DNA of 64,000 bases, taken from Pontiella sp. Its GTDB lineage: Bacteria > Verrucomicrobiota > Kiritimatiellia > Kiritimatiellales > Pontiellaceae. The position numbers and the translations under genes are program-made. The stretch covers positions 96,001 through 160,000 of the forward strand of contig JBNKHE010000006.1 in assembly GCA_050290185.1 (NCBI GenBank), given 5' to 3'. Positions 4,821 through 61,104 of the stretch are shown in pieces. Position 1 is the stretch's first letter. The number at the start of each line of letters is the position of its first letter. The notes under the pieces were generated by a model. That model was not told the DNA's origin. It saw only the letters and a program-made list of their open reading frames with translations, and did no database searches.

Positions 4821-4843
4821 GTGCGAAAAATCCGCAGGTTCAA

Positions 4844-9466: not shown

Positions 9467-9608
9467 CACCAATCCTCCAAACGGTTGATTATTTCGATAA
9501 GAGGGAAGAATGCAATCCCTCCAACTTATAAATCCTCCATTCTTTTATAAGTGAAATGCGTTTCTGCATGCCCTACTATCACCGCACATTCAACCAAGGA
9601 GAACTCGG

Positions 9609-10199: not shown

Positions 10200-10257
10200 G
10201 TCCGCGCTGGATCAATCTTCAAGTTGCGAATTTCAGGTTTCATAGCCCCGTCTACCC

Positions 10258-29849: not shown

Positions 29850-31653
29850 TCTGCTCCGACACCGCCGTCTCAAGTGCCTGCTTCAACACGGAGAAATCCA
29901 CCGGCTTGGTCACGAAACCGTCCATGCCCACCGACAGGCAACATTCCTTGTCCTCGGGCATGACGCTCGCGGTCACCGCAATAATCGGCGTCCGTGGACA
30001 GCGGTGCTCCGACTCCAACTCGCGAATACGGCGGCAGGCACTGAAGCCGTCCATTTTCGGCATACTGCAATCCATGAGAACAACTTCGTGCCGATCCCGC
30101 TGCCAGGCTTCCACGGCCTCGAGACCATTGACCGCAACATCCACAACGCATCCCATTTTTTCGAGCAGTTTGACGGCTACCACCTGATTGATCTTATTGT
30201 CCTCGGCGACCAGAACCCGCAAGCCAGCCAGGCCAACACCCGCTCCGGAAGAAGCGTCGCCGTTTGACGGGACGGAAACCTCTGGTGAAGTGGACGGAAT
30301 GGCCTTCTGCGTCTGCTGCGCAAAAGGCAGGGAAAACCAAAAAATCGAGCCCACGCCATACGTACTTTCAACGCCCATGGTTCCCCCCATCAAATCCACG
30401 AGTCGGCGGCTGATGGTCAGGCCCAACCCGGTACCGCCATACTTGCGCGTAGTGGAGGACTCCGCCTGCGTGAAGGAATCGAACAGGCTTTGCTGCACCT
30501 CCTCGGGTATGCCGATGCCGGTATCGCGGACGGAAAAATGCAGAACCACTTCATCGTCGCGGGTGTCCATTAGGGCGATTTCCAGATCAACCCCGCCCCT
30601 CTCTGTAAACTTGATGGCATTGCCCAAAAGGTTCAGCAGCACCTGCCGTAACCGCGCGGGGTCTCCGACCAGCTTATCGGGAACATCTGCGGGCAGCGAG
30701 CAGTCCAGGACCAACCCTTTTTCATCGGCACTGGGCCTAAACAGTTCGACGCATCTTTTGACCGTATCGCGCAGATCGAAATCCGTTTTCTCAAGGCATA
30801 GCTTACCGGCCTCGATTTTGGAAAAGTCGAGAATGTCGTTGGTGATGGCCAGCAAACTGTCTGCGCTGAACTTGATGGTTTTAGCCAATTCGCGCTGCTC
30901 CGGCATGAGCGGCGTATCCAGCAACAGATTGATTATACCAAGGACGCCGTTCATCGGCGTACGGATTTCATGACTCATACTTGCGAAGAACTCGTTCTTG
31001 GCCTTGCAGGAGACGAGTGCAGCCTCGGCCATTTTCTGGGCATTCCGGGTCGCGGACTTCAGCATTTCACTGGCCCGGGCCAACTCCGCGTTGACCTTTT
31101 CCAACTCCACGGTGCGCTCGTGCACCTTTTGCTCCAGGTGCACCAACCGCTGTTTCGCCTCGTTGTATAGCCGCCATTTTTCGGTCATGGAAACCGCCAG
31201 TTGCAGCACTTCGATGGTGTCGAACGGCTTTTTCAAGATGACAAGCCGGTCCGAGTAGCCGAGCTTTTGCAGCATCTCCTCCCAGGAATAGTCGGAATAG
31301 GCAGTGCAGATGACAATCTGGAGGTCGGGATATTTCCGCCAGATATGCGCGGCGGTTTCAATGCCGTCCCAGCCGGGCGGCATGCGCACGTCCACAAAGG
31401 CCATCGCGTAGGGCCGGTTCTCCATCAGGCTTTTTTCAATCAGGCCGAACCCTTCCCGGCCCTGGAACGCGGAATCGATCTGGAATTCCGGCATCGCGGC
31501 TTGCGCGGGTTGCTCGCCGAACAGTTCGGTCTCCATCGCGTCCAGCCGGTCGTTCGTGTTTTTGCGCCCGAGGATTTTCCTGAAATCTTCGTGGATTGAC
31601 TTGTTGTCGTCGATCACAAGTATGCGGTGGTTCTGGTTTGGATCAAATTTCAT
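29830..31653 (-). CDS. Hybrid kinase REC-HisKA-HATPase-REC
   Basis: FVDVRMPPGWDG, MSHEIRTPMNG, NLLGNAIKFT, GGTGLGL, MDCSMPKMDG. Confidence 0.95.
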   Translation of the reverse strand: MKFDPNQNHRILVIDDNKSIHEDFRKILGRKNTNDRLDAMETELFGEQPAQAAMPEFQIDSAFQGREGFGLIEKSLMENRPYAMAFVDVRMPPGWDGIETAAHIWRKYPDLQIVICTAYSDYSWEEMLQKLGYSDRLVILKKPFDTIEVLQLAVSMTEKWRLYNEAKQRLVHLEQKVHERTVELEKVNAELARASEMLKSATRNAQKMAEAALVSCKAKNEFFASMSHEIRTPMNGVLGIINLLLDTPLMPEQRELAKTIKFSADSLLAITNDILDFSKIEAGKLCLEKTDFDLRDTVKRCVELFRPSADEKGLVLDCSLPADVPDKLVGDPARLRQVLLNLLGNAIKFTERGGVDLEIALMDTRDDEVVLHFSVRDTGIGIPEEVQQSLFDSFTQAESSTTRKYGGTGLGLTISRRLVDLMGGTMGVESTYGVGSIFWFSLPFAQQTQKAIPSTSPEVSVPSNGDASSGAGVGLAGLRVLVAEDNKINQVVAVKLLEKMGCVVDVAVNGLEAVEAWQRDRHEVVLMDCSMPKMDGFSACRRIRELESEHRCPRTPIIAVTASVMPEDKECCLSVGMDGFVTKPVDFSVLKQALETAVSEQIRRAPS

Positions 31654-41852: not shown

Positions 41853-44234
41853 TCATTGCTTTTCGATCGCCTGCGCTCGGGGGCGGTAGAGCAGGCCGTA
41901 GAACATTTCGAGATAGCGCCGGGTTTCTTCGCGGTCAATGTTGGAAATGTGTTTCCAGAAGCCGTAGATGCGCGTGAGTTTCAGCAAGCGCGCGGCATAC
42001 AGTTCCCAGGTATAGGCCGCCTCGACGCGGTCCAGCGAACCTTGCGAGAGCTGGCTCCAATAATTTTCGTCTTTGGTGGCCCGGTCAAAGAAGTCGCACA
42101 TTTTACGGGCGGTTTGCTCGCCGTGGTTCGGATCGATATGGAAGCCGCTGATCCCGTCTTCGATGATTTCGAACGGACCGCCGAAACGGGTGGCAAAAAC
42201 CGGCAGGCCGGAAGCCATGGCCTCGATCACGGTCAGCCCGAACGCCTCAAACAGGGCGGGTTGCACAAAGGCTCCGTGATTATCCGCAATACAGCGATAC
42301 AGCTCGCCGTTGAAGTTGCGGTCCGAGCTGGCCTTGACCCATCGGACACAGGCATCGAGATCGTAGCGATCCATGAGTTCATGCATCAACTCGCACTGCT
42401 GCCGTTCCTCCGAATCTCCCGACTTTTTCGGATCGACCGTACCGGCAACCAGAAACAGATTGGCTTTTTCCCGCAGCTCCGGGCACTCGGCATACCATTG
42501 AACAAATCCGGTGACGTTCTTGATGCGGTCGAGGCGCGACATGGCGAACAGCAATGGTTTTTCACGGTCGGCCAGCTCGCCCCGGGCATCCGGATTTGCC
42601 GACCCGTAAATCATGGAATCGATGTCGTTGTGCAGAGAGCTCAACCGCCGGTCCGTTTTGTTGAAGGAGAAATAGACCTCGGCGTCGGCGCCGGGCGAAA
42701 TAATGTTGAACTTGGGATCGAAGACATTAATGCCCTGAAGCACACGATACAGCCCCGGCATGGTGAAGGCCTGGTAGCTTTCATACTGCCCCATCCCCTC
42801 ATCGGTCCCTGCAATTTCCTGATAGGTGCTGGTGATGATGAAATCCGCCGTGTTCATCGCAATCAGGTCGGCCGTGAACTGGCAGGAAAAGTGGTATTCC
42901 GGATCATGCTTCTGCCAATGAAGGGCGGAGAACAGATACTTGGTCTTTTCCAGTGCATGGGCAATGTTGCATTGCGTCACTCCCAGACGCTGTGTCATCA
43001 ACGAGGCCACCAGATTGCCGTCCGAATAGTTGCCGATGACGAGATCGGGCCGGCCTTCCAGCTTTGCAACCAGGTCGCGTTCGGCTTCGCGGGCAAAGCG
43101 CTCCAGATAGGGCCATATTTCAAAGCGCGAAATCCACTGGGGAACCACTTCGCCGTTTTTATTCCGGAAAGGAACCCGCAGAATCAGGGCATTTTCCGTT
43201 CCGAGAATCGGTTCGACACGTTGATTGCAGGTGGTATCTCCGGCATCGGGTATCAGACGGGTCAGCACTACAATGCGGGGCTCGATATCAAGCCCCTGCT
43301 CATACAGGTCGTGCCGCATCTGTTTTTCGAGCGCACGCACCTGATCCAGGATATAGACCACCTGCCCGCCGGTGTCGGGCATCCCCAAAACCCCGGACTG
43401 GCCGAAATAGCCGTGAGGCGATAGGATCGCCAGCCGCGATACCATCGGAATGCGGCTGAGAAATTCCGTCAGGTTGGAGGCATCGGGCGATTCGAGCACG
43501 TCCAGCAACAGCCCCATGGTTTCGCGGATCTTGTCTGCACGTCTTCCCCATCCCGGCTCAAAACAGGATTCGGGGAGTTCGTTGTGCAGTTTATCCCATT
43601 CCAGCCCGGGATCAACCCCCTGCAGATAGCGCCGTGCTTCACGCAGGTACCGCTGCAGTTCTTCGACGTTTTCAATCTGCTGGTTCAACAGCAGTTGCAC
43701 GTCGCCGTATTTATGCAGTTTCAGGAAATCAAGCAGGGCCTCACCGTGCTGGCGTGAAACCGTATGGGCCAAATGGCGGTTCAGAAAAGCGACGCCCTGT
43801 CCGATTGAACTGGTTTCCTTCATGAGCGGGAATCCGCGCTCGAACGGCTTAAGATCGATTTCAAGCGACCAGTCCTCATCGGGACTGAAGTCATTGGCCA
43901 TCTTCTCCTTGGCCTGCAGGAAGCCGGATGGATTCAGCTGGCTGATGCTGACATTGGTGGTGTCGATGCAGTAATAATGCCACTCGGCCACCTTATAACG
44001 CGCCGCCATATGGAGACATCCCTCCTGAACAATCATTTCCTCGGTCTTGTGAAAGAGGGTTTCCGACTCCGTCCCGCGCAGGGAAAAACCTTCCGGAGAA
44101 TCAAGAAACAGATCGAGTATATCGGCCACATCCGTGCGAAGCAGCAGCGGGCGCTCGGATCCACAGAATCGCCGGAGCAGGGAAAACAGGGCAGGACGAT
44201 TCGTCTCGAAATCGGATTGCAGTCTAAGAATCAT
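41853..44234 (-). CDS. Sucrose synthase (GT4)
   Basis: [61 protein letters not shown]. Confidence 0.95.
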
Positions 44235-44235
44235 A

Positions 44236-46386
44236 TTATTTCTCCTCGGGAATGTGGATTTCACCAAAAAAGTCGTAATGGGCAATCCCCTCCAGAATTC
44301 CGTTGGCGTGGCATCCTTCCGCAAAATAGATCCGGGGCCGCCCGCGCAGTTTTTTCAGCTCGGGGCTGTGATTGCCGACAACCACACCCAGCGTTTCCCC
44401 GCGGAGCATGTCTTCGTCGTTTCCGGAATCGCCCGCCACCAGCAGATGCTCAAAAGGTATGCCCCACTTGAATGCCAGATAGCGGATCGCCAACCCGCAC
44501 GATGCACGGATCGGCATCAGATCGAGATACATCCTGAACGAACAGGTCAGATTGACCCGAAGACCGGCCTCGCGGAGAAGACGGCGGATTCTCGCCACGG
44601 TCGGGGCCTTCTTTAAATCGATGGTATAGCTGATCTTGAAGCGATGCTGCTCCGTGACGTCCTGCATATACACGCCCGGAATTTCATCCATCACCGCCCG
44701 TATGGCGTCCGGCTCCCAGCGATAGTCGATGTGCCGCTTCCAAGCCTTGTCCTCCGTCAGGTGGCTGCCATAGCGGATGGAGGCACCGTTCGAGGTAATG
44801 AGAATATCCGGAGGCGGAGTCCCCAGTTCTTCTAGTTTTTCAAGCGCACTAACCTTCGAGCGCCCCGTTGCGATACCAAAGCCGGAGAACGAACCCGCCT
44901 GTTCCAACACCTTAAGCAACCGGGCGACAGCTTCGTCATCGCCAGTCAACGTATTATCGACATCCGTGATCAGGATTCGGTCCACTTCGGGGATGCGGCT
45001 TCGACGGGCTGACAGCTTCTGGGATCTTGAGCTGTCGGTCAATATGCCTTTGACCTCCCTGAGATAGCGATTCACGTGGCTAGGCCATGAAAACGTTTCC
45101 GAGGCCCCATGAATGCCGCTTTCCGACCATTTTTTCCACCTGTTGCCCTGCACCATGCCCAGCAGGGTCTCGCCCATCTTGTCGGCATCGAACGGATCGA
45201 TCAGAATACCGTTGTTGCAAGCGCCGATAATATCGCGTGGCCCGCCGTCGTTGGTCGCGGCAATCGGCAACCCGCTGGCCGCGGCCTCGATCAGAGTAAG
45301 CCCAAACGGCTCCGTCCAGGCGGGATTGACAAACACGCCGCGCGAGGCCGCCGCTAGGCGGTAGATATCCGGCACGTCGTCTGCGTCATGGTGTTTAGGC
45401 AGGGCTACCGATCCATACAGGTCGTATTTATCGATTAAATAAAGCACCTCGATCATCACCTTGCGCGAGCCCCGGTCCATAGCGCGAATATCGTCGCGGT
45501 TTCCCAGCACCAGCACCAGATTGGCCGCTTGGCGCAACCGCGCGTTGTTTGCATAGGCGTGGATCAGCGTGCTGATATTCTTGCGTTCATCCGGCCGCGC
45601 CATGGCCAACACCATGGGCCTGTCGGGGTCGTGCAGGAAGCGGTCGATTTCGCCGCGGATATGGCACTGAAATTTTTTGCGGGCCGGCGGGGAAAAGCGG
45701 TCGAGGTTGACCCCCGGCGGAATGACCCGCATGCAGGTCGGGTCGTAGTGTTCGTACATTTCATACTGTTGCTCGATCTCCTGATGCGTGCTGGTGATCA
45801 CCAGCGGCGCGGAATCCAACGCCAGCTCTTCGGCTTCGATGCGAGCATCCATGTTGTAGCGCTGGTTGATCTGCTCCCGCTGCGCCCCGCTTTCGAGCAT
45901 CCGCTCCATCTTCACCCGTCCGAGCGAGTGACCGGTAAACACAAACGGCACACCCAATAGATGAGCCAGGGTTGCCCCCACCATGCCGGCGTCGGCATAG
46001 TGTCCGTGTACGATATCGGGAATGCGGCGTAGCTTGCGGAAATGCGGCAGGGCGTTGTCGACAAAACTCGGCAGGTGCGGCCAGAGCTTTTCCTTGCGCA
46101 GATAGCGGCGTGGGCCAAAGGGAACCCGGATGATGTATGCGTTCTCAGAGAGTTGTTCTTCCGGCTGCGCGTAGCTGTCATCCACCTTCTTGTCGATCAC
46201 CTGCCGGGTAAAGAGATCCACGCGATCGACCGATGGATGCCTGGCCAGCGCCCGGGCCAGCTCGACGACATAGAGGATCTGCCCTCCGGTATCCGGGTCC
46301 CTTCCTAACTCCATATTCTGGCCACGAATCAGTCCATGCAAACTCAGCAACGCGATATAGCATCCCTTTTCTCCGTGCTTAGCCAT
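44236..46386 (-). CDS. Sucrose-phosphate synthase (GT4 plus C-terminal HAD domain)
   Basis: [53 protein letters not shown] motifs TDVDNTL and AGDSGND. Confidence 0.95.
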
Positions 46387-47311
46387 TGGTCACCGCCTCC
46401 AGTCCTTGGTATATGTCGGGGTTCGACGCCGTAGCGCCCTGCTGCCCGCAAACCCGAGTCGCCAGCTTTGTGGCACACGCCGCGGTTTCGGCGGGAGAGG
46501 AGCCCTTGAGAAAACCGCCCAGAATGGCGGCACAAAACGAATCGCCTGCCCCCACGGTATCGACCACCGGAGCCGTATCCTCATCGGGTTTCACACGCAA
46601 CGGTTCCACCGCGCCGGAACTATACAGCGCGCCTTCCTTTCCCAGCGTCAGCCAGATGGCATCCAGATCCCATTCGACACGAATCTTCCCGAGCGCCTCC
46701 TCCACCGCAAGCCCGCGCAGGCGTTCCGGCATCAGCAACTCCAATTCATCGTCGTTCAATTTCAACAGGCGCGCACGCTGTATCATATCCAGGACAGCAT
46801 CCTTCGACCACCAGGGCTCGCGCAGGTTGATATCCAGGAAAACCGGGGCTTCGGCCGCCTCGATCAGCCGCTCGAGAGCAGCACGCGATTTGCCGCGCAG
46901 CGCCAGCGAGCCATGGTAGAGGACGCCGCACTGCCGCAGGTTCACGGAACACCGGGCGGTTTCCGGTTCGATGAAATCATAGGCCTGGTCGGGCAGGATA
47001 TCGAAGGTGTGGCTCTTGCCGTCCATCTTGATTTCCACGCGTCCGGTCGGATGTTGCATGTCGCGCTGGATGCCGGAAGTATCCATCCCCCAATCGCGCA
47101 TCCGCGTAACCAGCTTCTGACCCGGATCATCATTTCCTATGCGGGAAATCAACAGCGGATTCCAGCCCAGGGCATGGAGGTGCCAGGCCACGTTGAGCGG
47201 AGCGCCTCCGGGAACGTTCCGGTCTTCAAAGCAGTCAAACAGTACTTCACCGAATACAACAGGACGGGTCGGCTGCATTTCGAGCGGATCAATTATTACC
47301 TTCCGGCTCAT
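46379..47311 (-). CDS. PfkB family carbohydrate kinase (probable fructokinase)
   Basis: FGEVLFD, PGGAPLNVA, DINLR, KLNDDEL, DTVGAGDSF; overlaps the SPS start. Confidence 0.9.
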   Translation of the reverse strand: MSRKVIIDPLEMQPTRPVVFGEVLFDCFEDRNVPGGAPLNVAWHLHALGWNPLLISRIGNDDPGQKLVTRMRDWGMDTSGIQRDMQHPTGRVEIKMDGKSHTFDILPDQAYDFIEPETARCSVNLRQCGVLYHGSLALRGKSRAALERLIEAAEAPVFLDINLREPWWSKDAVLDMIQRARLLKLNDDELELLMPERLRGLAVEEALGKIRVEWDLDAIWLTLGKEGALYSSGAVEPLRVKPDEDTAPVVDTVGAGDSFCAAILGGFLKGSSPAETAACATKLATRVCGQQGATASNPDIYQGLEAVTNG

Positions 47312-47414
47312 GACCTTAACCAAGCATTTCCAACGGACGACCGCAAAGGAATTATCAAACTTCCCCGGAAATCCGTTTGCAACGAGTGGTTAAAGCGCGT
47401 TAGGTAGAATCATC

Positions 47415-48221
47415 ATGAACACGACTCGATATCTGCTCGCCAGCGACATGGACGGCACCGTCATCCCGCTTGATGACCGGCCCGAACGGGAACAGGAGAT
47501 CGAATGGTTCACCGACGATCTGCATGGGCAGTCGGGACTGGTTCTGGCCTACGCCACCGGTCGCGATCTCAACCGTGTACTTATGGGCATCGCCGAATGG
47601 AAACTCCCGGAAGCGGACTGGCTGATCTGCGATGTCGGCACCTCTCTCTACTACTCCGCCGACGACGATGGTGAATGGGTTTTGAGTAACGAATACCGTG
47701 CGGAAATGCAACAGCGGTTCGGAGGGCACACGGCGCACGATGTTGCCGAAGTCCTGCAGGGCTACCCGGAACAGGACGCCTCGCGACAGACAGAGTTTAA
47801 GCACAGCTATGTCTTCAAGGTTGAGAACAAACCTGAACAGCTACTGCCGGAGATAAAACAGAAGCTGCAGGATGCCGGCATCCGCGCCGAGCTGGTTTAC
47901 AGTACCGATGTCTACACCGGCGAAGCCTTTCTCGATGTACTCCCCGCCGGCGTGGCCAAAGACTACGCCGTTTATTTTCTGCGCAAGCATCTGAACCTCG
48001 ATGCAAGCCAGGTGGTTTATGCCGGCGATTCCGGAAACGACGAACTCGCCTTCAAAAGCGGCATCAACGGCATCGTGGTAGCCAACGCCGACCCCAAGCT
48101 TGTAGCCGATCTAAAAAAATGGGCCGCCGAAAACGCCAAGCGTGACCACTTGTTTTTTGCAACCCAACCTTTCATCGCCGGCGTCCATGAAGGATGCCGC
48201 CATTTCGGGCTTCTGCACTAA
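47415..48221 (+). CDS. HAD-IIB hydrolase, probable sucrose-phosphate phosphatase
   Basis: ASDMDGT, YATGR, CDVGT, KHSY, DVLP...K, AGDSGND; divergent from the sucrose operon. Confidence 0.85.
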   Translation: MNTTRYLLASDMDGTVIPLDDRPEREQEIEWFTDDLHGQSGLVLAYATGRDLNRVLMGIAEWKLPEADWLICDVGTSLYYSADDDGEWVLSNEYRAEMQQRFGGHTAHDVAEVLQGYPEQDASRQTEFKHSYVFKVENKPEQLLPEIKQKLQDAGIRAELVYSTDVYTGEAFLDVLPAGVAKDYAVYFLRKHLNLDASQVVYAGDSGNDELAFKSGINGIVVANADPKLVADLKKWAAENAKRDHLFFATQPFIAGVHEGCRHFGLLH

Positions 48222-48235
48222 CATCGATCAAGACA

Positions 48236-49822
48236 ATGGATATTGCACAACACCAACCGGCCGTACTGGACTATTGGTTGATTGCCCTGTATGCCGCCGT
48301 GGTTCTGTGGATCGGCATCCGCTTGGCCAAAAAACACACGAACGCCGAGGACTATTTCCTCGCCGGCCGCAACATGATCTGGCCGTTTATCGGCGTCTCG
48401 CTGTTTGCCTCGAACATTTCCTCCACCACGTTGATCGGGCTGGCGGGCGATGCGTACCATACCGGCATCTCGGTCTTCAACTATGAGTGGTCGGCGGTGA
48501 TCGTGCTGGTCTTTTTCGGACTGTTCATGCTGCCCGCGATTCTAAAGTCGCGGGTCTTCACCATACCGGAGTTTCTGGAAAAGCGGTACGACCGGCGCAT
48601 ACGCATCTACTTTTCCGCCCTGACGCTTTTCCTCAACATCGTCGTCGACACCGCCGGCAGTCTTTTTGCCGGTGGCATCGTGCTGAAGATGGTCTTCCCC
48701 GAAACCGATCTGGGCCTGATCATCACCTGCCTCGCGGTCGTGGCAGGCCTGTACACCATTGCCGGCGGTCTGGCGGCGGTGATCTACACCGACTTTATCC
48801 AAACCATCCTGCTGCTCATCGGAGCCATAGTGATCAGCACGGTCGCATTTTCACGCGTCGGCGGCTGGGCCGGCATGACGGAAGGAATCGACCACGCCCA
48901 GCTCAGCCTGATTCGTCCGCTGGATGATCCGGGCGTGCCATGGCTCGGCGCGCTGCTGGGAATCCCGATCCTCGGATTCTATTTCTGGTGCGGCAACCAG
49001 TTCATGACGCAACGCGTCCTCTCCGCCAAATCGGTGGACCACGGCCGCAGAGGCGTATTGCTCGCGGGACTGCTTAAATTACCCGTCTTGTTCATCATGG
49101 TCCTGCCCGGCACGATGGCGATCCACCTTTATCCCGACCTGCCGCGCCCGGATCTGGTCTATCCCACCCTGATGTTCGATCTGTTGCCGACCGGATTGCT
49201 CGGACTGGTACTCGCCGGATTCATCGCGGCGCTGATGTCGCAGATCGACTCCACCTTGAACGCCGCCTCAACGTTGGTGACCATGGATTTCATCCATACC
49301 CGCATGCCCCAGCTTTCCAGCCGTGGCCTGATGGTTACCGGCCGTTGGGTAACCGGCATATTCATGGTGCTGGCCGCGCTCTGGGCCCCGCAGATCGAAC
49401 GGTTTCCCTCTCTCTTCAAATACCTGCAGATGGTCCTCTCCTATACCGTGCCGCCGATCGTGGTCATCTATTTGATCGGCGCGTTCTGGAAAGGCGCCAC
49501 GGCCAAGGGCGCCTGGCACACGGTACTATTCGGCACGCTTGTGGGCGGCGCACTCTTCGTCGTCAATGAAATTCTCGGATGGACCCATTTGCACTTCCTC
49601 TACATTGCACCGATCCTCTTTAGTGTTTCGCTCCTGATCCTGCTTCTGGTCAACCATGGCGGAACGGCCCCCGCTCCCGAACAGCAGGCTTTGGTCTGGA
49701 CGCCAGCCTTCTTCCGCGCCGAATCCATGGAACTGAAAGGCGTGCCCGTTTGGAAAAACTACCGCATCCTCTCCATCATCCTGCTCGCCCTCACCGCCTG
49801 GCTCGTGATTGCTTTTCGGTAG
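48236..49822 (+). CDS. Sodium:solute symporter (SGLT-like sugar transporter)
   Basis: DYFLAGR, SLFASNISS, TIPEFLEKRY, GGLAAVIYTD, NQFMTQRVL, AALMS. Confidence 0.92.
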   Translation: MDIAQHQPAVLDYWLIALYAAVVLWIGIRLAKKHTNAEDYFLAGRNMIWPFIGVSLFASNISSTTLIGLAGDAYHTGISVFNYEWSAVIVLVFFGLFMLPAILKSRVFTIPEFLEKRYDRRIRIYFSALTLFLNIVVDTAGSLFAGGIVLKMVFPETDLGLIITCLAVVAGLYTIAGGLAAVIYTDFIQTILLLIGAIVISTVAFSRVGGWAGMTEGIDHAQLSLIRPLDDPGVPWLGALLGIPILGFYFWCGNQFMTQRVLSAKSVDHGRRGVLLAGLLKLPVLFIMVLPGTMAIHLYPDLPRPDLVYPTLMFDLLPTGLLGLVLAGFIAALMSQIDSTLNAASTLVTMDFIHTRMPQLSSRGLMVTGRWVTGIFMVLAALWAPQIERFPSLFKYLQMVLSYTVPPIVVIYLIGAFWKGATAKGAWHTVLFGTLVGGALFVVNEILGWTHLHFLYIAPILFSVSLLILLLVNHGGTAPAPEQQALVWTPAFFRAESMELKGVPVWKNYRILSIILLALTAWLVIAFR

Positions 49823-52156: not shown

Positions 52157-53629
52157 TTAGAGCGACTTCATGTTGCTCATGGCGGCGCGCAGCTCTTCGC
52201 CGATGATTTCCACTTCGTGGTAGCGGATTTCGGCGTTTACTTCGACGAGCGTCTTGTTGTCGACCTTGTTGTCCGCCAGTTCGAGGCCCTTGCCGATAAC
52301 GTCGGTGCCAACCTTGGACATGAAATCCTTCAGCAGCGGAACGGCGGCGTGCGAGAAGAGGTAGCAGCCGTATTCAGCCGTGTCGGAAATAATGCGGTTC
52401 ATTTCAAACAGCTTCTTGCGCGCAATCGTGTTGGCGATGAGCGGCGTTTCGTGGAGCGATTCGTAGTAGGCCGATTCCGGCTTGATGCCGACTTCAACCA
52501 TCGCTTCGTACGCCAGTTCGACGCCGGCCTTGACCATGGCGACCATCAGGATGCCCTTGTCGAAATATTCCTGCTCGCTGATTTCAGCAGCGGTAGGCTC
52601 GGTCTTTTCGAAGGCCGTCTCGCCGGTCTCCTTGCGCCACGTCAGCAGCTTGACGTCGTCGTTGGCCCAGTCTTCCATCATGGTGCTGGAAAACACGCCG
52701 GTGATGATGTCGTCCATGTGCTTTTCAAACAGCGGGCGCATGATGATCTTCAGCTCCTCGGCCAGGTCGAACGCCTTGATCTTGGCCGGGTTGGAAAGGC
52801 GGTCCATCATGTTGGTGATGCCCCCCTGCTTGAGCGCTTCGGTAATCGTTTCCCAGCCATATTGGATGAACTTCGCGGTCCAGCCTGTATCTACGCCTTC
52901 GGCGACCATCTTGTCGAAGCAGAGGATCGAACCGGCCTGCAACAGACCGCAGAGAATGGTCTGCTCGCCCATGAGGTCGGATTTCACTTCGGCAACAAAA
53001 TTGGATTCCAGCACGCCGGCGTGGTGCCCGCCCTGGGCAACGGCAAGTGCTTTTGCGAGTTCCATGCCGTCGCCATTCGGATCGTTTTCGCGGTGGCAGG
53101 CAATCAGCGTCGGAACACCAAAGCCGCGCTTATATTCTTCGCGCACTTCGGAACCGGGTGATTTCGGGGCAACCATGATCACGGTCAGGTCCTTGCGGAT
53201 GAGCGTGCCTTCTTCAACAATGTTGAAGCCGTGGGCATAGCAGAAGGTCGCGCCCTGCTTCATCAGCGGAACAACGGTTTCAACGACGTTGGTGTGCTGT
53301 TTGTCGGGGGCGAGGTTCATGACGATGTCGGCGGTCGGAAGCATTTCCTCATAGGTGCCGACGCTAAACCCGTTTTCGGAAGCGTTGAGGTAGGACTGGC
53401 GTTTTTCCGTGATGGCGGCGGCGCGCAGGGTGTAGGAAACGTCGAGGCCGCTGTCACGCATGTTGAGACCCTGGTTCAGGCCTTGGGCGCCGCATCCGAC
53501 GATGACGATCTTCTTGCCCTTGGCATATTCGCATCCATTGGCGAACTCGGCGGCATCCATGAAGCGGCAGGTGCCGATTTCTTCAAGCTTCAGACGCATC
53601 GGAAGCGTATTGAAATAATTTTGTCCCAT
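52157..53629 (-). CDS. ilvC: Ketol-acid reductoisomerase, long (class II) form, 490 aa
   Basis: [38 protein letters not shown], duplicated knot domain [10 protein letters not shown]. Confidence 0.97.
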
Positions 53630-53679
53630 TGTTTTCTCCTTGGTTAATTCGAACGCGCGGAACCTACTCCAAATCACAC

Positions 53680-53727
53680 GTTGCGTAAATTGAATTATTT
53701 GGGATATAGTATTGCGATTTTCGAAAT
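53680..53727. promoter_or_regulatory. Tandem IlvY operators (O2/O1-like)
   Basis: gttgcgtaaattgaa (53680-53694) and attgcgattttcgaaat (53711-53727): LysR T-N11-A boxes 31 bp apart between ilvC and ilvY. Confidence 0.7.
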
Positions 53728-53853
53728 AAAAAAAGGCGTGAGCCGTGACGATTGAAACGTGATCTGGGGGGAATTCACGCTTCATGGCTCAATCATCACG
53801 GAATCACGGTCATGGAATTGATCTTCGTGGCTACACAAAACCGAGGAGATGTC

Positions 53854-54717
53854 GTGGATATTGCTGCATTGGAAACCTTCATCAAAACGGCGGAACTGCT
53901 GCATTTCGGCCGGGCAAGCCGGGCTTGCAACCTGAGCCCGTCGGCACTCACGCGTACCATCCAGCGGCTGGAAGAGGAGGTCGGGCAGATGCTCTTCATC
54001 CGCGATAACCGCAGCGTAGCACTGACTGAAGCAGGCAACCAGCTGCTTACGTATGCTCGCAGTGCCGTCCTGGAATGGCAGCATTTCCAGGGATCTCTTG
54101 CTCCCCGGGAGGAGGTTGCGGGTGCGATTTCGGTCTACGCCTCCATCACCGCGGTTTACAGCCTGTTGCCCGATCTGCTCGAAGCGTACCGGTCGGCCTA
54201 TCCCGACGTGCAACTGGCGCTGCGGACCGGCGCCGCTGAACGGGCTATCGAGCAGCTGATGAGCGGGGAAATCGATCTGGCCATTGCCGCCCTGCCCGAT
54301 ACCAAGCAGACCCAGCTGGAATTCATGCCGCTGGCGGAAACACCGCTGGTGTTTATCGCGCCGAAATCATCGGATCCAATACGACGAAAACTGGACCTGT
54401 CGAAAGAGCCGCTGGTGGTACCGCAATCCGGTGTGGCGCGGAACCGGCTGGATGCATGGCTGCGGCGCAACCATGTCGTCCCCAACATTTCCACGGAGGT
54501 TTCTGGAAATGAAGCCCTGATTGCCATGGTCCGCCTGGGCGCCGGAACGGGAATCGTGCCGCAACTCGCCCTGGAGCGCAGTCCTTTCCGCGATGACGTG
54601 AACATTATTGCAAACGCCCCCAAACTTGACCCCTACGTCGTCGGCCTCTGCTCCAGCAAACGCAACCTCAAGCGGCCTGCCGTCAAAGCTATTTGGGAAT
54701 TGGCGGCATCCCTCTAA
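53854..54717 (+). CDS. ilvY: LysR family activator IlvY
   Basis: LHFGRASRACNLSPSALTRTIQRLEEEVG..LFIRDNRSV, ASITAVYS, VSGNEALIAMVRLG; divergent from ilvC. Confidence 0.9.
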   Translation: MDIAALETFIKTAELLHFGRASRACNLSPSALTRTIQRLEEEVGQMLFIRDNRSVALTEAGNQLLTYARSAVLEWQHFQGSLAPREEVAGAISVYASITAVYSLLPDLLEAYRSAYPDVQLALRTGAAERAIEQLMSGEIDLAIAALPDTKQTQLEFMPLAETPLVFIAPKSSDPIRRKLDLSKEPLVVPQSGVARNRLDAWLRRNHVVPNISTEVSGNEALIAMVRLGAGTGIVPQLALERSPFRDDVNIIANAPKLDPYVVGLCSSKRNLKRPAVKAIWELAASL

Positions 54718-54822: not shown

Positions 54823-55164
54823 CTAGCCGATGGCTTCGGTGCCCTTCTCCCCGGTGCGGATCCGGATGCATTCCGGCAGATCGAGAACGAAAATCTTTCC
54901 ATCCCCGATGTTGCCGGTGCGAGCTCCCTTGATGATCGCATCGGTCGTGGCTTCGACAAATTCAGCGTTTACCGCGATCTCGAGACGAACCTTCTTGAGC
55001 AGGTTCACTTCGACGTCCGTGCCGCGGTAGGTCTCATGATAGCCCTTCTGCTGACCACATCCCAGCGCGTTGGTGACGGACATCTTGTAGACTTCGGCCT
55101 CGTACAGGGCCTGTTTGACCTCGTTGAGGGCTTCGGGCTGTATGTATGCAATAATCAGCTTCAT
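54823..55164 (-). CDS. P-II family nitrogen regulator
   Basis: [11 protein letters not shown]-loop [32 protein letters not shown]. Confidence 0.95.
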
Positions 55165-55356
55165 ATCCAACATCCTTTGTCGTTTGGTTTATAAGTGGTC
55201 AAGTGCCAGTCAGGCTTCTGCAATGGAGGAGGCTTAACACCTAAACCCTCCTTCTTAACACTCCCTATACATGGGTAAAGAGCAACCATCCATATGTAGA
55301 TCAGGAAACCATTCCTGTCCATATCCGAAGGACGGAACAAATGTCCGACCGGGAAC

Positions 55357-57633
55357 TCAGGCCAGGACTTCAGGGGCCAGGTTTTGATCGATAAGAAAAG
55401 CCTCGATTTCGCTGATCCGGCCAAGGTCAAGCATCTGATTGGCGATCGCCTCGGCATCCTGCAGCCGGATAGAGCCTACCAACCGCTGCACGGTAGGCGC
55501 ATTGACGATATCGATACTGAACTTCCGCAGGCCAACGCCCAACAGAAATGGAAGCAAGCGGTTATCGGCTGAAAGATCCCCGCAAATGGAAACATCCTTG
55601 TTCTGGGTTTTTGCAGCAGCAACAATCCGGTTGATGGCCCGCAGGATCGCCGGATGGTGGGCCAGGTAGAGACTGGACACCTTTTCGTTGGTCCGGTCGA
55701 CCGCAAGCATGTACTGGATGAGATCGTTGGATCCGATGGAGAGAAAATCAGCTTCCTGAGCCAGCTCATCGATAACCTCCACGGCCGAAGGAAGTTCCAC
55801 CATAACACCCAGTTGGGTCTCCCGGTTGAACGGAATCCCGCCGGCTTCGAGCTCATCCATGCATTCGTAGACGATATCCCGGGCCGCCAGAAAATCATCC
55901 ACCGATGAAACCAGCGGAAACATGATCCGGGTATCGCTTTCCGCTCCGGCACGCAGAAAAGCGCGCAACTGGTCGCAGAAAATATCCTTGTTCTGCAACG
56001 AAAAGCGGATGGCACGCATGCCGAGAAACGGGTTGGCCTCGCTGACGTGCGAATAGTAGGAGAGCATCTTGTCCCCGCCGATATCCAGCGTGCGGAAGGT
56101 TACGCTTCGGCCTACCATCTGATCCACCAGCTTCTTGTAGATCAGATACTGCTCCTCCTCGCTCGGGAAGTCGGTGCGCACGATAAACGGAAATTCGGAG
56201 CGGTAGAGCCCCACGCCTTCGGCCTTGAACTTATGGGCAGGCTTGAGGTCGCTCAACAGATTGATGTTGGCATAGATATGCACGCGTTCACCGCATTTTG
56301 TCAGGGTTTTTTCCTGCACGTCGGCGGCATCGTGCAAGGCTTGCCAGGCCTCATCCAGCTCCTTGTATTTGCGCTGGACCTCGTCGGTTGGTTCGAGATA
56401 GATAATCCCCTGCTCGCCATCGACCAGCATCTCGATGCCTTCCTCGATGGCATCGGCCTCCTCGCGGCTGATGGAGACCATGGGGATACCCAGTGAGCGG
56501 CTGATGATGGCGTTGTGCGAGGTTACCCCGCTACTGACAATGAAGCCCTCGACGTTTTCGGCCGACAATTTAAGGATATCGGACGGCAGCAGCTCGTGAG
56601 CGATGATGATCTGGCCGCGATAGTCGCAGGCGTCGGCTTCCTCATTGAGCAGGTTGCGCGTAAGGCGGGTTCCCAGGTCTTTTACGTCGATCACCTTTTC
56701 GCGAATCATCGGCATCTTGCTTTTGGAGAACACCTCGACATATTCGTTGACCACTCCCGCAATCGCCTTAACAGCAGGCGTGCCGGTTTCAATCAGGCCG
56801 GCAATGCGGCCGGTAAACTGCTTATCCTCGAGGATGAGCAGGTGGGCGCTGAAAATGAGTACGGCGACGTCGGCCAGCTCGGTCGAGGTCTGGCGCTGCA
56901 GTTGCTCGATCTGGCGCATCGTTTTATCGAGCGCCTTGTTGAAATCATCCAGGGTATGCGGCGACGCATCAGGGTCGGGCAGCAGGCAGGCATCGGCATC
57001 GTTTGCATCCAGCGTACAGGCCCGCCCCCGGGCCGTTCCCGTGCTCGCAGCCCGCCCCCGCAGGATGTCCCCCTTGCCCATCTTCCTGATGGCCGGCGCC
57101 TCTTCTACCAGCGCCCGTTCGCGAACCTCGCTCAACAGCTGGACATTCTCGATCATCGTCGCCAGCTGGGCCGCAATGGCCCGCAGAGCCTTCACGTCGT
57201 TCGGGGTAAAATAGTTGGTTTCCTTCGCCTGGACCACCAGAGCGCCGATTCTTCTCAAACCGCGAAGGATCGGCACGGCCAGAAACGCTTCGTATTCCTC
57301 TTCATGAATGCCCGGGAAAAACTTGTAGGAGGCGCTCTTGGAGGCGCTCCCAACGCAGATGGGGCGCAATTCACGGATCGCCCGGCCGGTAATCCCCTCC
57401 CCCACGGCCAGCTTGACGGTTCCAATGGCGCCTTCATCCAGGCCCTGGGTGGCGCGCAGGGTCAGCTCCTTGTGCTCCTCGTCATAAATGTAGATCGAGC
57501 AAACATCGGCCTGCATATGCCTGGCAACCGTCGTCACCACGGTTTGCAACAACACCTTGCGGTCCTGTCCTTCTTCGGCCAAGGACATCAGCTCGGCGAT
57601 ATCGCATACGAGATCTACATTCCGTTTTTTCAT
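55357..57633 (-). CDS. ptsP: GAF-domain PEP-protein phosphotransferase (EI-Ntr)
   Basis: N-terminal GAF, TSHNAII phospho-His, GVGLYRSEF, RTLDIGGDK, EANPFLGMRAIR, SIGSNDLIQY. Confidence 0.93.
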   Translation of the reverse strand: MKKRNVDLVCDIAELMSLAEEGQDRKVLLQTVVTTVARHMQADVCSIYIYDEEHKELTLRATQGLDEGAIGTVKLAVGEGITGRAIRELRPICVGSASKSASYKFFPGIHEEEYEAFLAVPILRGLRRIGALVVQAKETNYFTPNDVKALRAIAAQLATMIENVQLLSEVRERALVEEAPAIRKMGKGDILRGRAASTGTARGRACTLDANDADACLLPDPDASPHTLDDFNKALDKTMRQIEQLQRQTSTELADVAVLIFSAHLLILEDKQFTGRIAGLIETGTPAVKAIAGVVNEYVEVFSKSKMPMIREKVIDVKDLGTRLTRNLLNEEADACDYRGQIIIAHELLPSDILKLSAENVEGFIVSSGVTSHNAIISRSLGIPMVSISREEADAIEEGIEMLVDGEQGIIYLEPTDEVQRKYKELDEAWQALHDAADVQEKTLTKCGERVHIYANINLLSDLKPAHKFKAEGVGLYRSEFPFIVRTDFPSEEEQYLIYKKLVDQMVGRSVTFRTLDIGGDKMLSYYSHVSEANPFLGMRAIRFSLQNKDIFCDQLRAFLRAGAESDTRIMFPLVSSVDDFLAARDIVYECMDELEAGGIPFNRETQLGVMVELPSAVEVIDELAQEADFLSIGSNDLIQYMLAVDRTNEKVSSLYLAHHPAILRAINRIVAAAKTQNKDVSICGDLSADNRLLPFLLGVGLRKFSIDIVNAPTVQRLVGSIRLQDAEAIANQMLDLGRISEIEAFLIDQNLAPEVLA

Positions 57634-57771
57634 ATGTCTCCAACTCACTTAACAGGGTAACAGCATATCCGGCATTTCGAGGCGTGTCAAAAAATAGAGA
57701 TTGTCCAATTTACGAATCGACCTTGCCCAACGCCTTCCCTACTATTTTGTCCTTAAAAAGCCGGAAATTCT

Positions 57772-60700
57772 ATGAACAAGCCCTCTGCAGAAAAGCTGCT
57801 CGAAATCTACCGTTCCATGATCGCCTCGCGCTATACCGACCAGTTGCAGTCGGCCGCCGCGCAAAGGGGCGAAGTTTTCTTCTATATTCCTTCGTCCGGG
57901 CACGAAGCCAGCGCCGCGCTCAACGCGCACCTGATCGGGGCCGACTGGCTGCACCTGCACTACCGCGACCGCGCCCTGGCCTACGCCCGCGGCGTCACGT
58001 ACGAATCCGTATTCTACGGCCTGTTCTCCAAAGAGGAATCCAATTCCGGCGGCCGGCGCATGCCCGCCTTCCCGTGCGATCCCGAATTGAATATACTGAG
58101 CACCCCGACTCTGGTCGGAAGCAACGTGCTGCAGGCGGTCGGCGTGGCATCGGAAATCAAAGATCTGGACGGCAACCCGTTCGTGACGGTATCGGTCGGC
58201 GACGGAGCCACCCAGCAGGGCGACTTCTACGAAGCCATCGCCGAGGCCGTCCGCGCCAACCTTCCGGTGCTGTTTCTGATCGAGGACAACCGCTTTGCGC
58301 TTTCCACCGTGACCAAAGGCAATACCTTCTACTCCCTGCCCGGCGGGGAAACCGAAAGCTTCTACGGCCTGCCCATTCACCGGGTTGACGGTAGCGACGC
58401 CATGGCCACCTATGAAACGTTTGGCGACGTCGCTTCAACGATTCGTGCATCGCGCGGACCGCAGATTGTGGTCTTCAACGTCGAGCGGCTCGAAAGCCAC
58501 ACCAATGCCGACGACCAGTCCATGTACCGTACCGAGGCCGACCTGAAACATGCCAAGGACAATGCCGACCCCTGCGCCCGCCTGCGCGAAGCCATGCTGG
58601 CCGACGGCATTGACGAGGCACAGGTTAAAGCGATCGAGGACGAGGTCAAGGACGCCATCGACGCGGCTTTTCACACCGCCCGCAAGGGAACTACGCCCAA
58701 GGCGAGCCTTACGGCCAAGAAACCGCTTCCCGAACCGCGCGTGGAATACCGCGGCACCGATGACGCCCGTACCTTGAGCATGCTCGAAGCCATGCGCGAG
58801 GCCCTCAAGGCCCGCCTGGCGAGCGACCCACGAACCTCCTTGCTCGGGCAGGACATCGAAGATCCAAAGGGCGATGTCTTCGGTCTCACCCGCGGTTTGA
58901 GCAAGGCATATCCCGATCAGGTCCACAATGCGGCGTTAGCCGAAAACACGATTCTCGGCGTCTCTACCGGTCAGGCGCTGGCCGGCGGCCATCCCGTCGC
59001 CTTCATGCAGTTTGCCGACTTCCTGCCGGTGGCCTACAACCAGATCCTTTCCGAAATCGGCGCCATGTACTGGCGGACCAACGGCCAGTGGGAAGCGCCC
59101 GTGCTGATGATGTCGATCTGCGGCGGCTACCGTCCGGGCCTCGGCCCCTACCACGCCCAAACCATGGAATCGATCTGCGCCCACGTCCCGGGCGTCGATG
59201 TCTTTATGCCTTCGACGGCCGCCGACGCCGCCGGCCTGCTCAACGCCATTTCCGAATCGGGACGCCCGTCGGTCTTCCTCTTCCCGAAGAGCCTGATCAA
59301 CGACCGCACCAACACGACCTCTGCCGATGTTGAAAAGCAGTATGTGCCCATCGGCAAGGCACGAATCACACGCACCGGACAGGATATTACCCTCGTGAGC
59401 TGGGGCGGATCCATGCCGGTATGCGAACGCACGGCCGAAGCCCTTGCCGAAACCGGCATTAACGCTGAAATCATCGATCTGCGCACCATCTTCCCGTGGG
59501 ACGAGGAAGCCGTATTGGCCTCCGCGAAAAAGACCGGCAAGCTCGTTATCGTGCACGAAGACAACCAGACCGCCGGCATGGGCGGCGAAATTGCGGCCAC
59601 CATCGCCGAACGCGCCGGTAACGCGGTACAGATCGCCCGCGTCACGCGGCCCGATACCTACATCCCCTACGACTATTCCTGCCAGATCGAGGTGCTGCCG
59701 TCCTACAAGCGCACCCTCGAAAAGTGCTGCGAGCTGCTCGACATCGACATTCATTGGGATAAGCCCGTGGAAGAGGAAGCCGGAACCGTCACCGTCAAGG
59801 CGATCGGCTCCAGCCCGTCGGACGAAACCATCACGATCACCAGCCTCCCCATAAGCGTCGGCGATACCATTGCCGAGGGCGATCTGATTGCGTCGGTTGA
59901 AGCCGACAAAGCGTCGATGGATATTTCCGCCCCGGTCAGCGGCACGATTTCGGAGTTGCTTGCAGAAGAAGGCGATGTGCTACGCGTCGGAACACCGATG
60001 GTCAGGATTGCATCCGACGAGGCGGCCCAGCTGAAGCCGCTGACCAAGGAAGATCCCGGCACCCCGGTCATGGAACGCCGCCGCGCGGCTGAAGCACAGC
60101 CGGCCCCGGACAGGAGCGATATCCATCCCGCCCTTTCAAACTCCATATACATTTCCAATATCGCCACCGTCTTTGGCTCGCGCCACCTCACCAACGACGA
60201 GCTGCTGCAGGGCCATGGCGAATGGGATTCGGAAGCGATCCGCAAGCGAACGGGCATCGAAAACCGCTACTGGATTGACGGAGATGAAAACGTGCTGTCG
60301 CTGGCGGTCAAAGCCACCCGCAACCTGCTTGCAAAGGAACAGCTCCACATTTCCGATATCGGCGCAATTATCTGCTCAACCGGCACGCCACTGGTCATGA
60401 CGCCTTCGCTGGCCTGTAGCGTTCTGCACGAACTCAGCCCGGAAAAGGGCGAAGTACTGATGCAGGCACATGACGTCAACGCCGCCTGCTCCGGCTACAT
60501 GTATGCCCTGCAGTCGGCATTCGACTTCCTGACCAACGCCCCCGACAAGAAGGTGATTGTCATCACCGCCGAAACGCTCTCGCCCATGGTCAACCACGAT
60601 GACCAGAAAACCATGGCCCTGTTTGGCGATGCAGCGACGGCATCACTGGTCAGCTGCGAAAAACGTCCGGGCGATATCGGCGTCAAACTCAACCGCCCGG

Positions 60701-61104
60701 TACTCTCTGCAACGGGCGTGGATGCAAAGGTCCTCTATGTCCCGAACATGGGCAGCGGCGAAGTGATCGAGATGGAAGGGCTGACCGTCTTCAAGCTGGC
60801 CGTGCGCAAAATGATCGACATGCTCGACCTGGCCTGCCAGGAACGCGGCATCACGGTCGAGGATCTGCAGAAGATCGTGCCGCACCAGGCCAACGAACGC
60901 ATCATCGAGGCCATCCGCAAGACGATCAAATGCCCGTCGGAAAAGATGTTCAACCATATCCGCAAGTACGGAAACACCTCGTCGAACACGATTCCGATCG
61001 CGCTCGCCGAGCTGGTCCCCGAACTGGACTCCGACACGCTGATCGGCCTCACCGCCTTCGGCGGCGGATTCACCTTTGGCGCCGCGGTGATCGAGAAGGT
61101 TTAG
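57772..61104 (+). CDS. Fusion: 2-oxoacid dehydrogenase E1alpha, E1beta, lipoyl domain and beta-ketoacyl-ACP synthase III
   Basis: ThDP motif GDGATQQG...IEDN; E1beta LAENTILG, QFADF, GPYHAQ, IIDLRT, VHED; lipoyl VEADKA; KAS III RKRTGI..R, AACSG, PHQAN, YGNTSS, AFGGGFTFG. Confidence 0.93.
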   Translation: MNKPSAEKLLEIYRSMIASRYTDQLQSAAAQRGEVFFYIPSSGHEASAALNAHLIGADWLHLHYRDRALAYARGVTYESVFYGLFSKEESNSGGRRMPAFPCDPELNILSTPTLVGSNVLQAVGVASEIKDLDGNPFVTVSVGDGATQQGDFYEAIAEAVRANLPVLFLIEDNRFALSTVTKGNTFYSLPGGETESFYGLPIHRVDGSDAMATYETFGDVASTIRASRGPQIVVFNVERLESHTNADDQSMYRTEADLKHAKDNADPCARLREAMLADGIDEAQVKAIEDEVKDAIDAAFHTARKGTTPKASLTAKKPLPEPRVEYRGTDDARTLSMLEAMREALKARLASDPRTSLLGQDIEDPKGDVFGLTRGLSKAYPDQVHNAALAENTILGVSTGQALAGGHPVAFMQFADFLPVAYNQILSEIGAMYWRTNGQWEAPVLMMSICGGYRPGLGPYHAQTMESICAHVPGVDVFMPSTAADAAGLLNAISESGRPSVFLFPKSLINDRTNTTSADVEKQYVPIGKARITRTGQDITLVSWGGSMPVCERTAEALAETGINAEIIDLRTIFPWDEEAVLASAKKTGKLVIVHEDNQTAGMGGEIAATIAERAGNAVQIARVTRPDTYIPYDYSCQIEVLPSYKRTLEKCCELLDIDIHWDKPVEEEAGTVTVKAIGSSPSDETITITSLPISVGDTIAEGDLIASVEADKASMDISAPVSGTISELLAEEGDVLRVGTPMVRIASDEAAQLKPLTKEDPGTPVMERRRAAEAQPAPDRSDIHPALSNSIYISNIATVFGSRHLTNDELLQGHGEWDSEAIRKRTGIENRYWIDGDENVLSLAVKATRNLLAKEQLHISDIGAIICSTGTPLVMTPSLACSVLHELSPEKGEVLMQAHDVNAACSGYMYALQSAFDFLTNAPDKKVIVITAETLSPMVNHDDQKTMALFGDAATASLVSCEKRPGDIGVKLNRPVLSATGVDAKVLYVPNMGSGEVIEMEGLTVFKLAVRKMIDMLDLACQERGITVEDLQKIVPHQANERIIEAIRKTIKCPSEKMFNHIRKYGNTSSNTIPIALAELVPELDSDTLIGLTAFGGGFTFGAAVIEKV

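Follow-up and report, generated by a model that had tools for sequence, protein, structure and literature searches.

The stretch of DNA analysed here, hereafter the window, comprises 64,000 nucleotides of the genome of a Pontiella sp. of the order Kiritimatiellales (contig JBNKHE010000006.1, positions 96,001 to 160,000 of the forward strand). It carries a gene in which the alpha and beta parts of a thiamine diphosphate (ThDP)-dependent 2-oxoacid dehydrogenase component (E1), a lipoyl domain and a FabH-type 3-oxoacyl-acyl carrier protein (ACP) synthase III (KAS III) are encoded as one polypeptide. In the textbook route of Bacillus and Staphylococcus, a branched-chain 2-oxoacid dehydrogenase (BCKDH), built of E1alpha2beta2, E2 and E3 components, supplies acyl-coenzyme A (acyl-CoA) to FabH. 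An original prediction, made from the sequence alone, proposed that the fusion primes fatty-acid synthesis without CoA, the acyl group passing straight from the lipoyl arm to the KAS III. Here we describe the architecture, conservation and genomic context of this fusion and weigh that proposal against its alternatives.

Architecture of the fusion gene

The fusion (P0001) and its parts occupy the following positions of the window (aa, amino acids; ORF, open reading frame):

57772..61104, + strand: E1alpha-E1beta-lipoyl-KAS III fusion, 1110 aa, a single ORF without internal stop
57808..58701, + strand: E1alpha ThDP/Mg-binding domain, aa 13-310 (PF00676, E=4e-44), with GDG143...N173, Y64-R65, F37 and His243
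58774..59676, + strand: E1beta pyrimidine-binding and C-terminal domains, aa 335-635 (PF02779, PF02780), with Glu391 (58942) and His461 (59152)
59785..60012, + strand: lipoyl domain, aa ~672-747 (PF00364), with Lys713 at 59908-59910
60019..60147, + strand: linker from the lipoyl domain to the KAS III, disordered at aa 773-788; 28-77 aa long across the family (median 42)
60148..61098, + strand: FabH-type KAS III, aa 793-1109, with Cys906, His1038 and Asn1068

Pfam searches placed E1_dh at residues 13-310, Transket_pyr at 335-509, Transketolase_C at 528-635, Biotin_lipoyl at 689-746, ACP_syn_III at 901-967 and ACP_syn_III_C at 1022-1108; among the ten Pfam families listed, neither the E2 catalytic domain (PF00198) nor PF02817 was found in the fusion. 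The four-domain, E2-less layout in one ORF that had been predicted is thus borne out, as are the positions given for the GDG (58198), LAE(391) (58936), GPYH (59143) and EADKA (59899) motifs and for the KAS III triad of Cys906 (60487), His1038 (60883) and Asn1068 (60973). In the AlphaFold2 model every domain is confidently folded (mean predicted local distance difference test score 94.1), the only disordered stretch, residues 773-788, lying between the lipoyl domain and the KAS III. Foldseek returned matches to the single components, and no Protein Data Bank (PDB) chain listed spans the full architecture.

An origin of the fusion by assembly artefact or frameshift, which would have undone the prediction, was ruled out by homologues of like layout and by junction-spanning contigs. 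The E1_dh, lipoyl and KAS III families occur together in 118 of the 120 homologues listed, the remaining two being labelled partial, and we therefore regard the fusion as genuine. Individual contigs from runs X1 and X2 also cross the E1beta-lipoyl-KAS junctions with 0 differences; both runs belong to one study that is possibly the source of this DNA and hence not independent.

The E1 part has the attributes of ThDP-dependent E1 enzymes (the GDG..N motif, the activating Glu and the catalytic His residues), and the best PDB matches of E1alpha and E1beta are the two chains of the Thermus branched-chain 2-oxoacid dehydrogenase (1UM9_A and 1UM9_B, respectively); TIGR03181, the best NCBIfam alpha model, scores below its cut-off. 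The carrier domain finds its best PDB matches among E2 lipoyl domains, which outrank biotin carriers and rule out a biotin-carrier identity, and its target residue K713 is a predicted lipoylation site. In the 99 full-length members of alignment A2, a count that omits 20 partial rows, no substitution occurs at F37, Y64, R65, N173, H243, E391, H461, C906 or N1068, while 98 members have K713 and 98 have H1038. Since the catalytic residues of E1, lipoyl domain and KAS III are retained together, selection acts jointly on the three modules.

Distribution of the family

The nearest named relatives among the matches listed belong to Pontiella and Pontiellaceae (82-87% identity), and a search of representatives at 50% identity gave dozens of full-length clusters, down to ~37% identity. 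Of the best 80 genome loci, 73 carry E1, lipoyl domain and KAS III in one frame, six are cut by contig ends and one is split; their titles include Kiritimatiellales and other Verrucomicrobiota, Planctomycetota, Spirochaetota, Rhizobium, Armatimonadota, Sumerlaeota, Nitrospirales and a cyanobacterium. The fusion was present in 10/10 sampled genomes of the order, in 19/71 of the class, where one further genome has a partial copy, and in 17/151 of the phylum sample (one query, E<=1e-50), samples that overlap and in which related genomes are not independent. The taxonomic survey called for by the prediction thus describes a widely conserved family, found in all sampled members of the order and patchily in other phyla. 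In three assemblies (L087, L107 and L117) the fusion is broken by a frame interruption, either an error or a pseudogene.

Database labels for these proteins read only 'beta-ketoacyl-ACP synthase 3' or '2-oxoisovalerate dehydrogenase', and no paper describing the E1-lipoyl-KAS III architecture was found in the open-access literature, as covered by listings and the beginnings of abstracts (subscription journals and supplements lay outside this scope).

The KAS III domain and its CoA site

The fused KAS III passed the PRK09352 model (268 bits against a cut-off of 249) and did not reach that of TIGR00747 (226 against 292), on which the stand-alone FabH of the same genome scores 420 bits. It has the thiolase fold and Cys-His-Asn triad of FabH/KAS III enzymes, with a Foldseek template modelling score of ~0.9 against FabH chains. 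In Escherichia coli numbering, R249 (Arg1043) and R36 (Arg826) are kept, and Ala822 stands at W32, Gln945 at R151, Trp818 at T28 and Thr877 at F87. In FabH, as described in the available part of PMC4606726, the CoA adenine is sandwiched between Trp32 and Arg151 and hydrogen-bonded to Thr28, and Arg36 contacts the phosphopantetheine part.

This adenine-binding pair is missing throughout the family: W32 and R151 were each found in 0/92 fused domains from genome loci, and in 2/47 and 1/47 divergent fused representatives, respectively. Both are present in 30/30 stand-alone FabH of the class, and among carriers in other phyla the 28 best stand-alone KAS III, a set from which one truncated locus and a single fused match were dropped, have W32 in 27 and R151 in 21 (plus three with K). 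Residues of the pantetheine tunnel are retained (F157, G209 and N247 in 92/92 fused domains, R249 in 91/92), R36 is kept in 78/92, and K214 on the ACP face is variable, with K in 27/92. The register on which Ala822 corresponds to W32 and Trp818 to T28 is backed by profile-profile alignment, by HMMER alignments to PDB chains and by an ungapped count anchored on GI..R, in which W occupies position 32 in 2/139 fused against 31/31 comparison domains. As judged from these alignments, the canonical CoA-adenine site is lost in the fused KAS III. In a homologue set whose named members include Rhizobium, Devosia and some Planctomycetota, position 36 is L in 96/109 and position 151 is F in 100/109, a hydrophobic site that would accommodate a lipoyl-lysine arm more readily than it would a nucleotide.

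The idea that the F87-to-T change marks a branched specificity was abandoned, because FabH of Staphylococcus aureus and Bacillus subtilis has Phe at this position and 5/28 stand-alone KAS III have Thr; no passage on a role of this change was found in the literature, the available part of PMC10054515 giving nothing relevant. In the stand-alone FabH of planctomycete-type carriers (L219, L221, L223, L225 and L227), position 28 is often aromatic or Cys and position 87 often Thr; these enzymes resemble the fused domain in this and could possibly represent its source lineage.

Related E1-lipoyl modules

The E1 regions of 71 proteins were placed in a FastTree phylogeny, and since its midpoint root is arbitrary no order of events is claimed. 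A clade of 35 members (support 100) contains 30 KAS fusions; nested within it are further variants, one of them with an E2 tail and one with a thioesterase tail. The neighbours of this clade, relatives of the fusion E1, are single-chain E1alpha-E1beta-lipoyl-E2 proteins in which the E2 motif, usually DHxxxDG, reads DHxxxNG in 10 of the 13 checked (P0197, P0188, P0154, P0187, P0189, P0195, P0198, P0201, P0204-P0206, P0213 and P0172). P0197 continues into an ACP, and P0188 does likewise and then into polyketide synthase (PKS)-nonribosomal peptide synthetase (NRPS) modules; P0188 had been entertained as a case of a lipoyl domain feeding a type I ketosynthase directly, and was dropped because the E2-like domain and ACP intervene. 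P0127 (1942 aa) has the order E1-lipoyl-KAS III-ketoreductase (KR)-ACP, followed by ~250 C-terminal residues without domain assignment, and might be a miniature assembly line for an acyl product. The modules of P0159 and P0157, which end in a thioesterase domain and in a ~230-aa domain without assignment, might set the acyl group free as an acid or pass it to some other acceptor.

Comparable loaders have been described for natural products: Qnc (QncN/QncL/QncM) and SclQ1-4 are E1/lipoyl systems that acylate a carrier protein (PMC6335953, in the part available), and a pyruvate dehydrogenase (PDH)-like loader is mentioned for ripostatin (PMC5490192, available in part, citing Fu et al. 2017). Going by these partial sources, the loaders and the fusion have in common a ThDP-dependent E1-type enzyme acylating a lipoyl arm, from which the acyl unit is handed on to a biosynthetic carrier protein, a transfer that is known there and proposed here. 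The loaders belong to natural-product clusters and use an E2-type domain and a dedicated ACP, whereas the fusion has a condensing KAS III and its gene stands alone; the E2-type domain and dedicated ACP, not found in or near the fusion, are present in P0197 and P0188. The single-chain E1-lipoyl-E2 proteins with DHxxxNG are probably one-protein starter loaders of the Qnc type. Because the tails vary among KAS III, E2-like, ACP and thioesterase domains, acceptor domains are interchangeable on the E1-lipoyl module, which is linked to carrier-protein loading, and the fusion fits a lineage of starter-loading modules.

Host genome and E2 dependence

The host genome (G000, 95.5% complete) encodes an AceE/AceF pyruvate dehydrogenase and a second E2-E3-E1 cluster, the two E2s sitting with other E1 genes; a search for a separate BCKDH-type E1 found none. 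Its stand-alone FabH, encoded in a plsX-fabH-fabD-type setting, scores above the TIGR00747 cut-off. The genome also has a type III PKS, LipA, GcvH, two copies each of Lpd and LipB/LplA-type genes, pyruvate:ferredoxin oxidoreductase and two 2-oxoacid oxidoreductase alpha subunits. The E3 in trans that the prediction required is accordingly available, together with the lipoylation genes; of the separate genes to be looked for, fabH is present, and the two E2s have other E1 partners. With an ordinary FabH and two E2s retained in this genome, the fusion would provide a second route to primers beside FabH and not the main one, and a separate KAS III is likewise kept in 19/19 carriers of the class and 31/32 of other groups.

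An E2 catalytic domain was not found in 3 of 51 carriers (G004, G022 and G218), of which the first two are 97% and 96% complete and the third is a single-chromosome assembly. In G004 and G022, the fusion holds the sole non-biotin high-scoring PF00364 domain found, the only other strong match being the biotin carrier AccB, and in G022 it is also the only E1_dh match.

The second cluster of the host (L032, G000:C5:140519-145701) lies amid sugar-catabolism genes and has an E1 of 817 aa with fused alpha and beta parts, similar to E1 frames of 820-850 aa in many genomes of the class. The type III PKS-like gene (L034, G000:C1:600888-602054; best NCBIfam model DpgA, below cut-off) stands beside a large membrane protein gene.

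Gene neighbourhood and other features of the window

The following loci upstream of the fusion were annotated:

55357..57648, - strand: GAF-domain phosphoenolpyruvate-protein phosphotransferase (PtsP-like), divergent neighbour of the fusion
52157..54717, ilvC (- strand) and ilvY (+ strand): 3-4 kb upstream of the fusion; PRK05225 and PRK11716 pass their cut-offs

To the left of the fusion are the divergent GAF-PtsP gene, a P-II gene, ilvY and ilvC, and to the right Sel1/TPR genes; as predicted, no E2 or E3 gene adjoins it in the window, nor does an ACP gene. A promoter scan returned two sites, against 1.3 expected, and nothing for the fusion gene. The distances to ilvY and ilvC, 3 and 4 kb, are as originally given, but their use as a substrate clue did not survive: within the retrieved flanks, which reach at most about 6 kb, ilvC occurs at 4/99 and ilvY at 3/99 loci, all close relatives, and this synteny was ruled out as substrate evidence. 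The other recurring neighbours, ptsP (17/99) and P-II (11/99), are likewise confined to close relatives.

The PtsP-like gene followed by the P-II gene (54823-57648) is conserved in Pontiellaceae, with an ammonium-transporter-like gene next in relatives, and the host genome carries several P-II copies. In Rhizobium rhizogenes (L108), a fatty-acid hydroxylase-family gene (4720-5715) precedes the fusion and a 309-aa ORF without Pfam match (9464-10390) follows it. Elsewhere in the window, sucrose synthase, a sucrose-phosphate synthase/phosphatase fusion, a HAD phosphatase and a sodium:solute symporter-like gene are clustered at 41853-49822, and the stretches 16192-23210 and 29830-34066 encode hybrid histidine kinases and large sensor proteins with multiple PAS/CHASE domains.

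Proposed mechanism and substrate

The mechanism we propose begins with established E1 chemistry, for which the residues are present: E1 with ThDP would decarboxylate a 2-oxoacid and reductively acylate the lipoyl group on Lys713 of the same chain. The arm would then swing to the fused KAS III, where, in the key step, S-acyl-dihydrolipoamide would acylate Cys906 directly, without E2 or acyl-CoA. By established FabH chemistry, for which the triad and R249 are present, the acyl-enzyme would condense with malonyl-ACP of the housekeeping type II fatty-acid synthase to give 3-oxoacyl-ACP, and an E3 in trans would re-oxidise the arm, lipoylated by LipA with a LipB/LplA-type enzyme, whose genes are present and whose use here is presumed. 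The fusion would work alongside ordinary FabH and add a second class of primer. Going by the sequence comparisons, we judge such a self-contained, primer-loading KAS III moderately probable. Of the predicted CoA bypass, what holds up is the comparative case (a KAS III in the place of E2, residues kept, the adenine pair lost, carriers without E2); what does not is the substrate clue from ilvC/ilvY.

Given this mechanism, a branched-chain 2-oxoacid is somewhat favoured as the substrate class, another or larger hydrophobic 2-oxoacid is possible with less conviction, and pyruvate seems unlikely. Better evidence for a branched substrate than ilvC/ilvY is the BCKDH-like E1 together with the iso-fatty acids of Pontiella. 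Even-numbered iso-chains require an isobutyryl primer. P. desulfatans (P0025) and P. sulfatireligans (P0049) both encode the fusion, and their major fatty acids are C18:0, i-C12:0, i-C14:0 and i-C18:0 (PMC7356697, in the part available), the profile of P. agarivorans being similar in what is accessible of 10.1101/2023.06.09.544357. Because Pontiella makes even iso-fatty acids, the likeliest path in this lineage would lead from 2-oxoisovalerate through isobutyryl to these chains, and the substrate may vary between lineages. The simplest division of labour would have FabH start straight chains and the fusion iso chains. A supposed association of Rhizobium rhizogenes with an iso 3-hydroxy fatty acid was not used, as no paper on it was found.

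Alternative explanations

Several observations weigh against direct transfer or against the branched-chain reading. The W32 count depends on the register, one MAFFT run having set Trp818 on W32 in 115/115 and 100/109 homologues, and in the supported register Trp at position 28, itself an adenine contact, occurs in 71/139. An aromatic residue near 32 and a basic one near 151 are combined in 25/92 fused domains; as Trp818 lies near, R36 is retained and Lys946 stands beside position 151 in the Pontiella fusion, its CoA site may have been remodelled, more plausibly so in this clade than elsewhere in the family. Thr at position 87 (83/92 fused domains), being shared with five of the 28 stand-alone KAS III, is not diagnostic. 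The E2-less genomes are metagenome assemblies, and a congener of G022 has E2. Co-occurrence of LipA and E3 with the fusion in 18/18 class carriers is uninformative and was dropped as support, because the base rates are high (64/70 and 66/70) and GcvH, encoded also in G004 and G022, accounts for both. Neither an ACP or lipid gene near the fusion nor an operon partner is conserved across phyla (80 loci clustered; 75 selected flanking ORFs at 36 loci). As to the substrate, the His of the GRQMPxH loop of the Thermus enzyme is Phe in the Pontiella clade (F in 42 and H in 47 of 99) and all 99 fusion members have FADF where that enzyme has FADY; the two 2-oxoacid:ferredoxin oxidoreductases of the host could provide isobutyryl-CoA instead, and the iso-fatty-acid link concerns two congeneric species, without a negative control.

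Some of these points could be accommodated if acyl-CoA were still in the path, with an E2 in trans acylating CoA from the arm and the KAS III accepting this acyl-CoA through a remodelled adenine site (Trp818, Arg826, Lys946). E2 is present in 48/51 carriers, twice in the host, and the Trp at position 28 and the retained R36 would suit such a site. We nevertheless consider this unlikely in view of the three carriers in which E2 was not found, of the fact that neither the fusion gene nor its immediate neighbours encode an E2 or an E2-binding domain, and of the family-wide loss of W32 and R151, with Leu36 and Phe151 prevailing in the Rhizobium/Devosia set. FabH has a transacylase side activity, and the KAS III might also act as a substitute E2, passing the acyl group from the arm through Cys906 to CoA or holo-ACP without condensation. 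The sister modules, which load ACP through an E2-like domain (PMC6335953, in part), the variable K214 and the known KAS III-like acyltransferases such as CerJ (PMC4425429, in the part available) speak for this; yet CerJ, according to the same partial source, has lost the His, whereas the malonyl-decarboxylation residues of the fusion are kept (His1038 in 98/99, Asn1068 in 99/99). Moreover, the in-chain KR and ACP of P0127 imply a 3-oxo product and the loss of W32/R151 argues against a CoA acceptor, and we regard a mere transacylase as quite improbable.

A further alternative accepts direct transfer and assigns it a purpose other than bulk membrane fatty acid: priming of a specialised polyketide or lipid of minor abundance, or salvage of longer or aromatic 2-oxoacids. 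The patchy spread of the family (19/71 of the class, 17/151 of the phylum sample), the nearly universal retention of an ordinary KAS III, the PKS/NRPS-type relatives, the changes in the E1 pocket and the hydroxylase-family gene upstream at one Rhizobium locus are all in line with it. It appears rather unlikely, given that the fusion is found in every sampled genome of an order whose cultured members are rich in even iso-fatty acids, so far as the two partially available sources on Pontiella describe them, and that no recurring biosynthetic cluster surrounds it.

Comparison with known systems

Direct lipoyl-to-Cys transfer would set the fusion apart from established routes. With BCKDH and FabH it shares a BCKDH-like E1 (1UM9), a lipoyl arm, a predicted need for E3 and a proposed FabH-type condensation by a Cys-His-Asn triad; it differs in being one polypeptide without E2 core or E2/E3-binding domain, PF00198 being found neither in its chain nor in its neighbours, in having a KAS III without W32 and R151, and in probably bypassing acyl-CoA. 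Relative to FabH/KAS III enzymes (TIGR00747, PRK09352), the fold, catalytic triad, tunnel residues and R249 are the same, whereas the fused domain is joined to E1-lipoyl, falls under the TIGR00747 cut-off, has lost W32 and R151 and carries T in place of F87. Alternative initiation of type II fatty-acid synthesis is described in the available part of PMC10869286 for the malonyl-ACP decarboxylases MadA/MadB and for Pseudomonas putida FabB, with the primer derived from malonyl-ACP. Like these, the fusion is proposed to start fatty-acid synthesis without FabH and acetyl-CoA; unlike it, those routes involve, in that part of the source, no 2-oxoacid or lipoyl donor. The fusion thus resembles both BCKDH with FabH and the Qnc/ripostatin loaders, yet lacks a defining feature of each.

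Significance

What emerges is a conserved architecture assembled from known parts, apparently uncharacterised, with probably one new chemical step. The wider claim, that this multi-phylum family represents an undescribed form of fatty-acid initiation in which acyl-dihydrolipoamide, in place of acyl-CoA or acyl-ACP, is the donor to the ketosynthase Cys and a single polypeptide channels a 2-oxoacid to 3-oxoacyl-ACP, that it gives rise to the even iso-fatty acids of Kiritimatiellales and that it forms a one-gene module for branched lipids, stands in our view at about even chances. If true, direct transfer from lipoyl group to ketosynthase would constitute a donor chemistry new to ketosynthases and open a new way into type II fatty-acid synthesis, by which branched primers would be kept off the CoA pool, in which they are in competition with acetyl-CoA and catabolism. 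It would also account for the abundant iso-fatty acids of anaerobes such as Pontiella, in which no conventional branched-chain dehydrogenase was found, and the single fusion gene could serve as a compact tool for the production of branched fatty acids.

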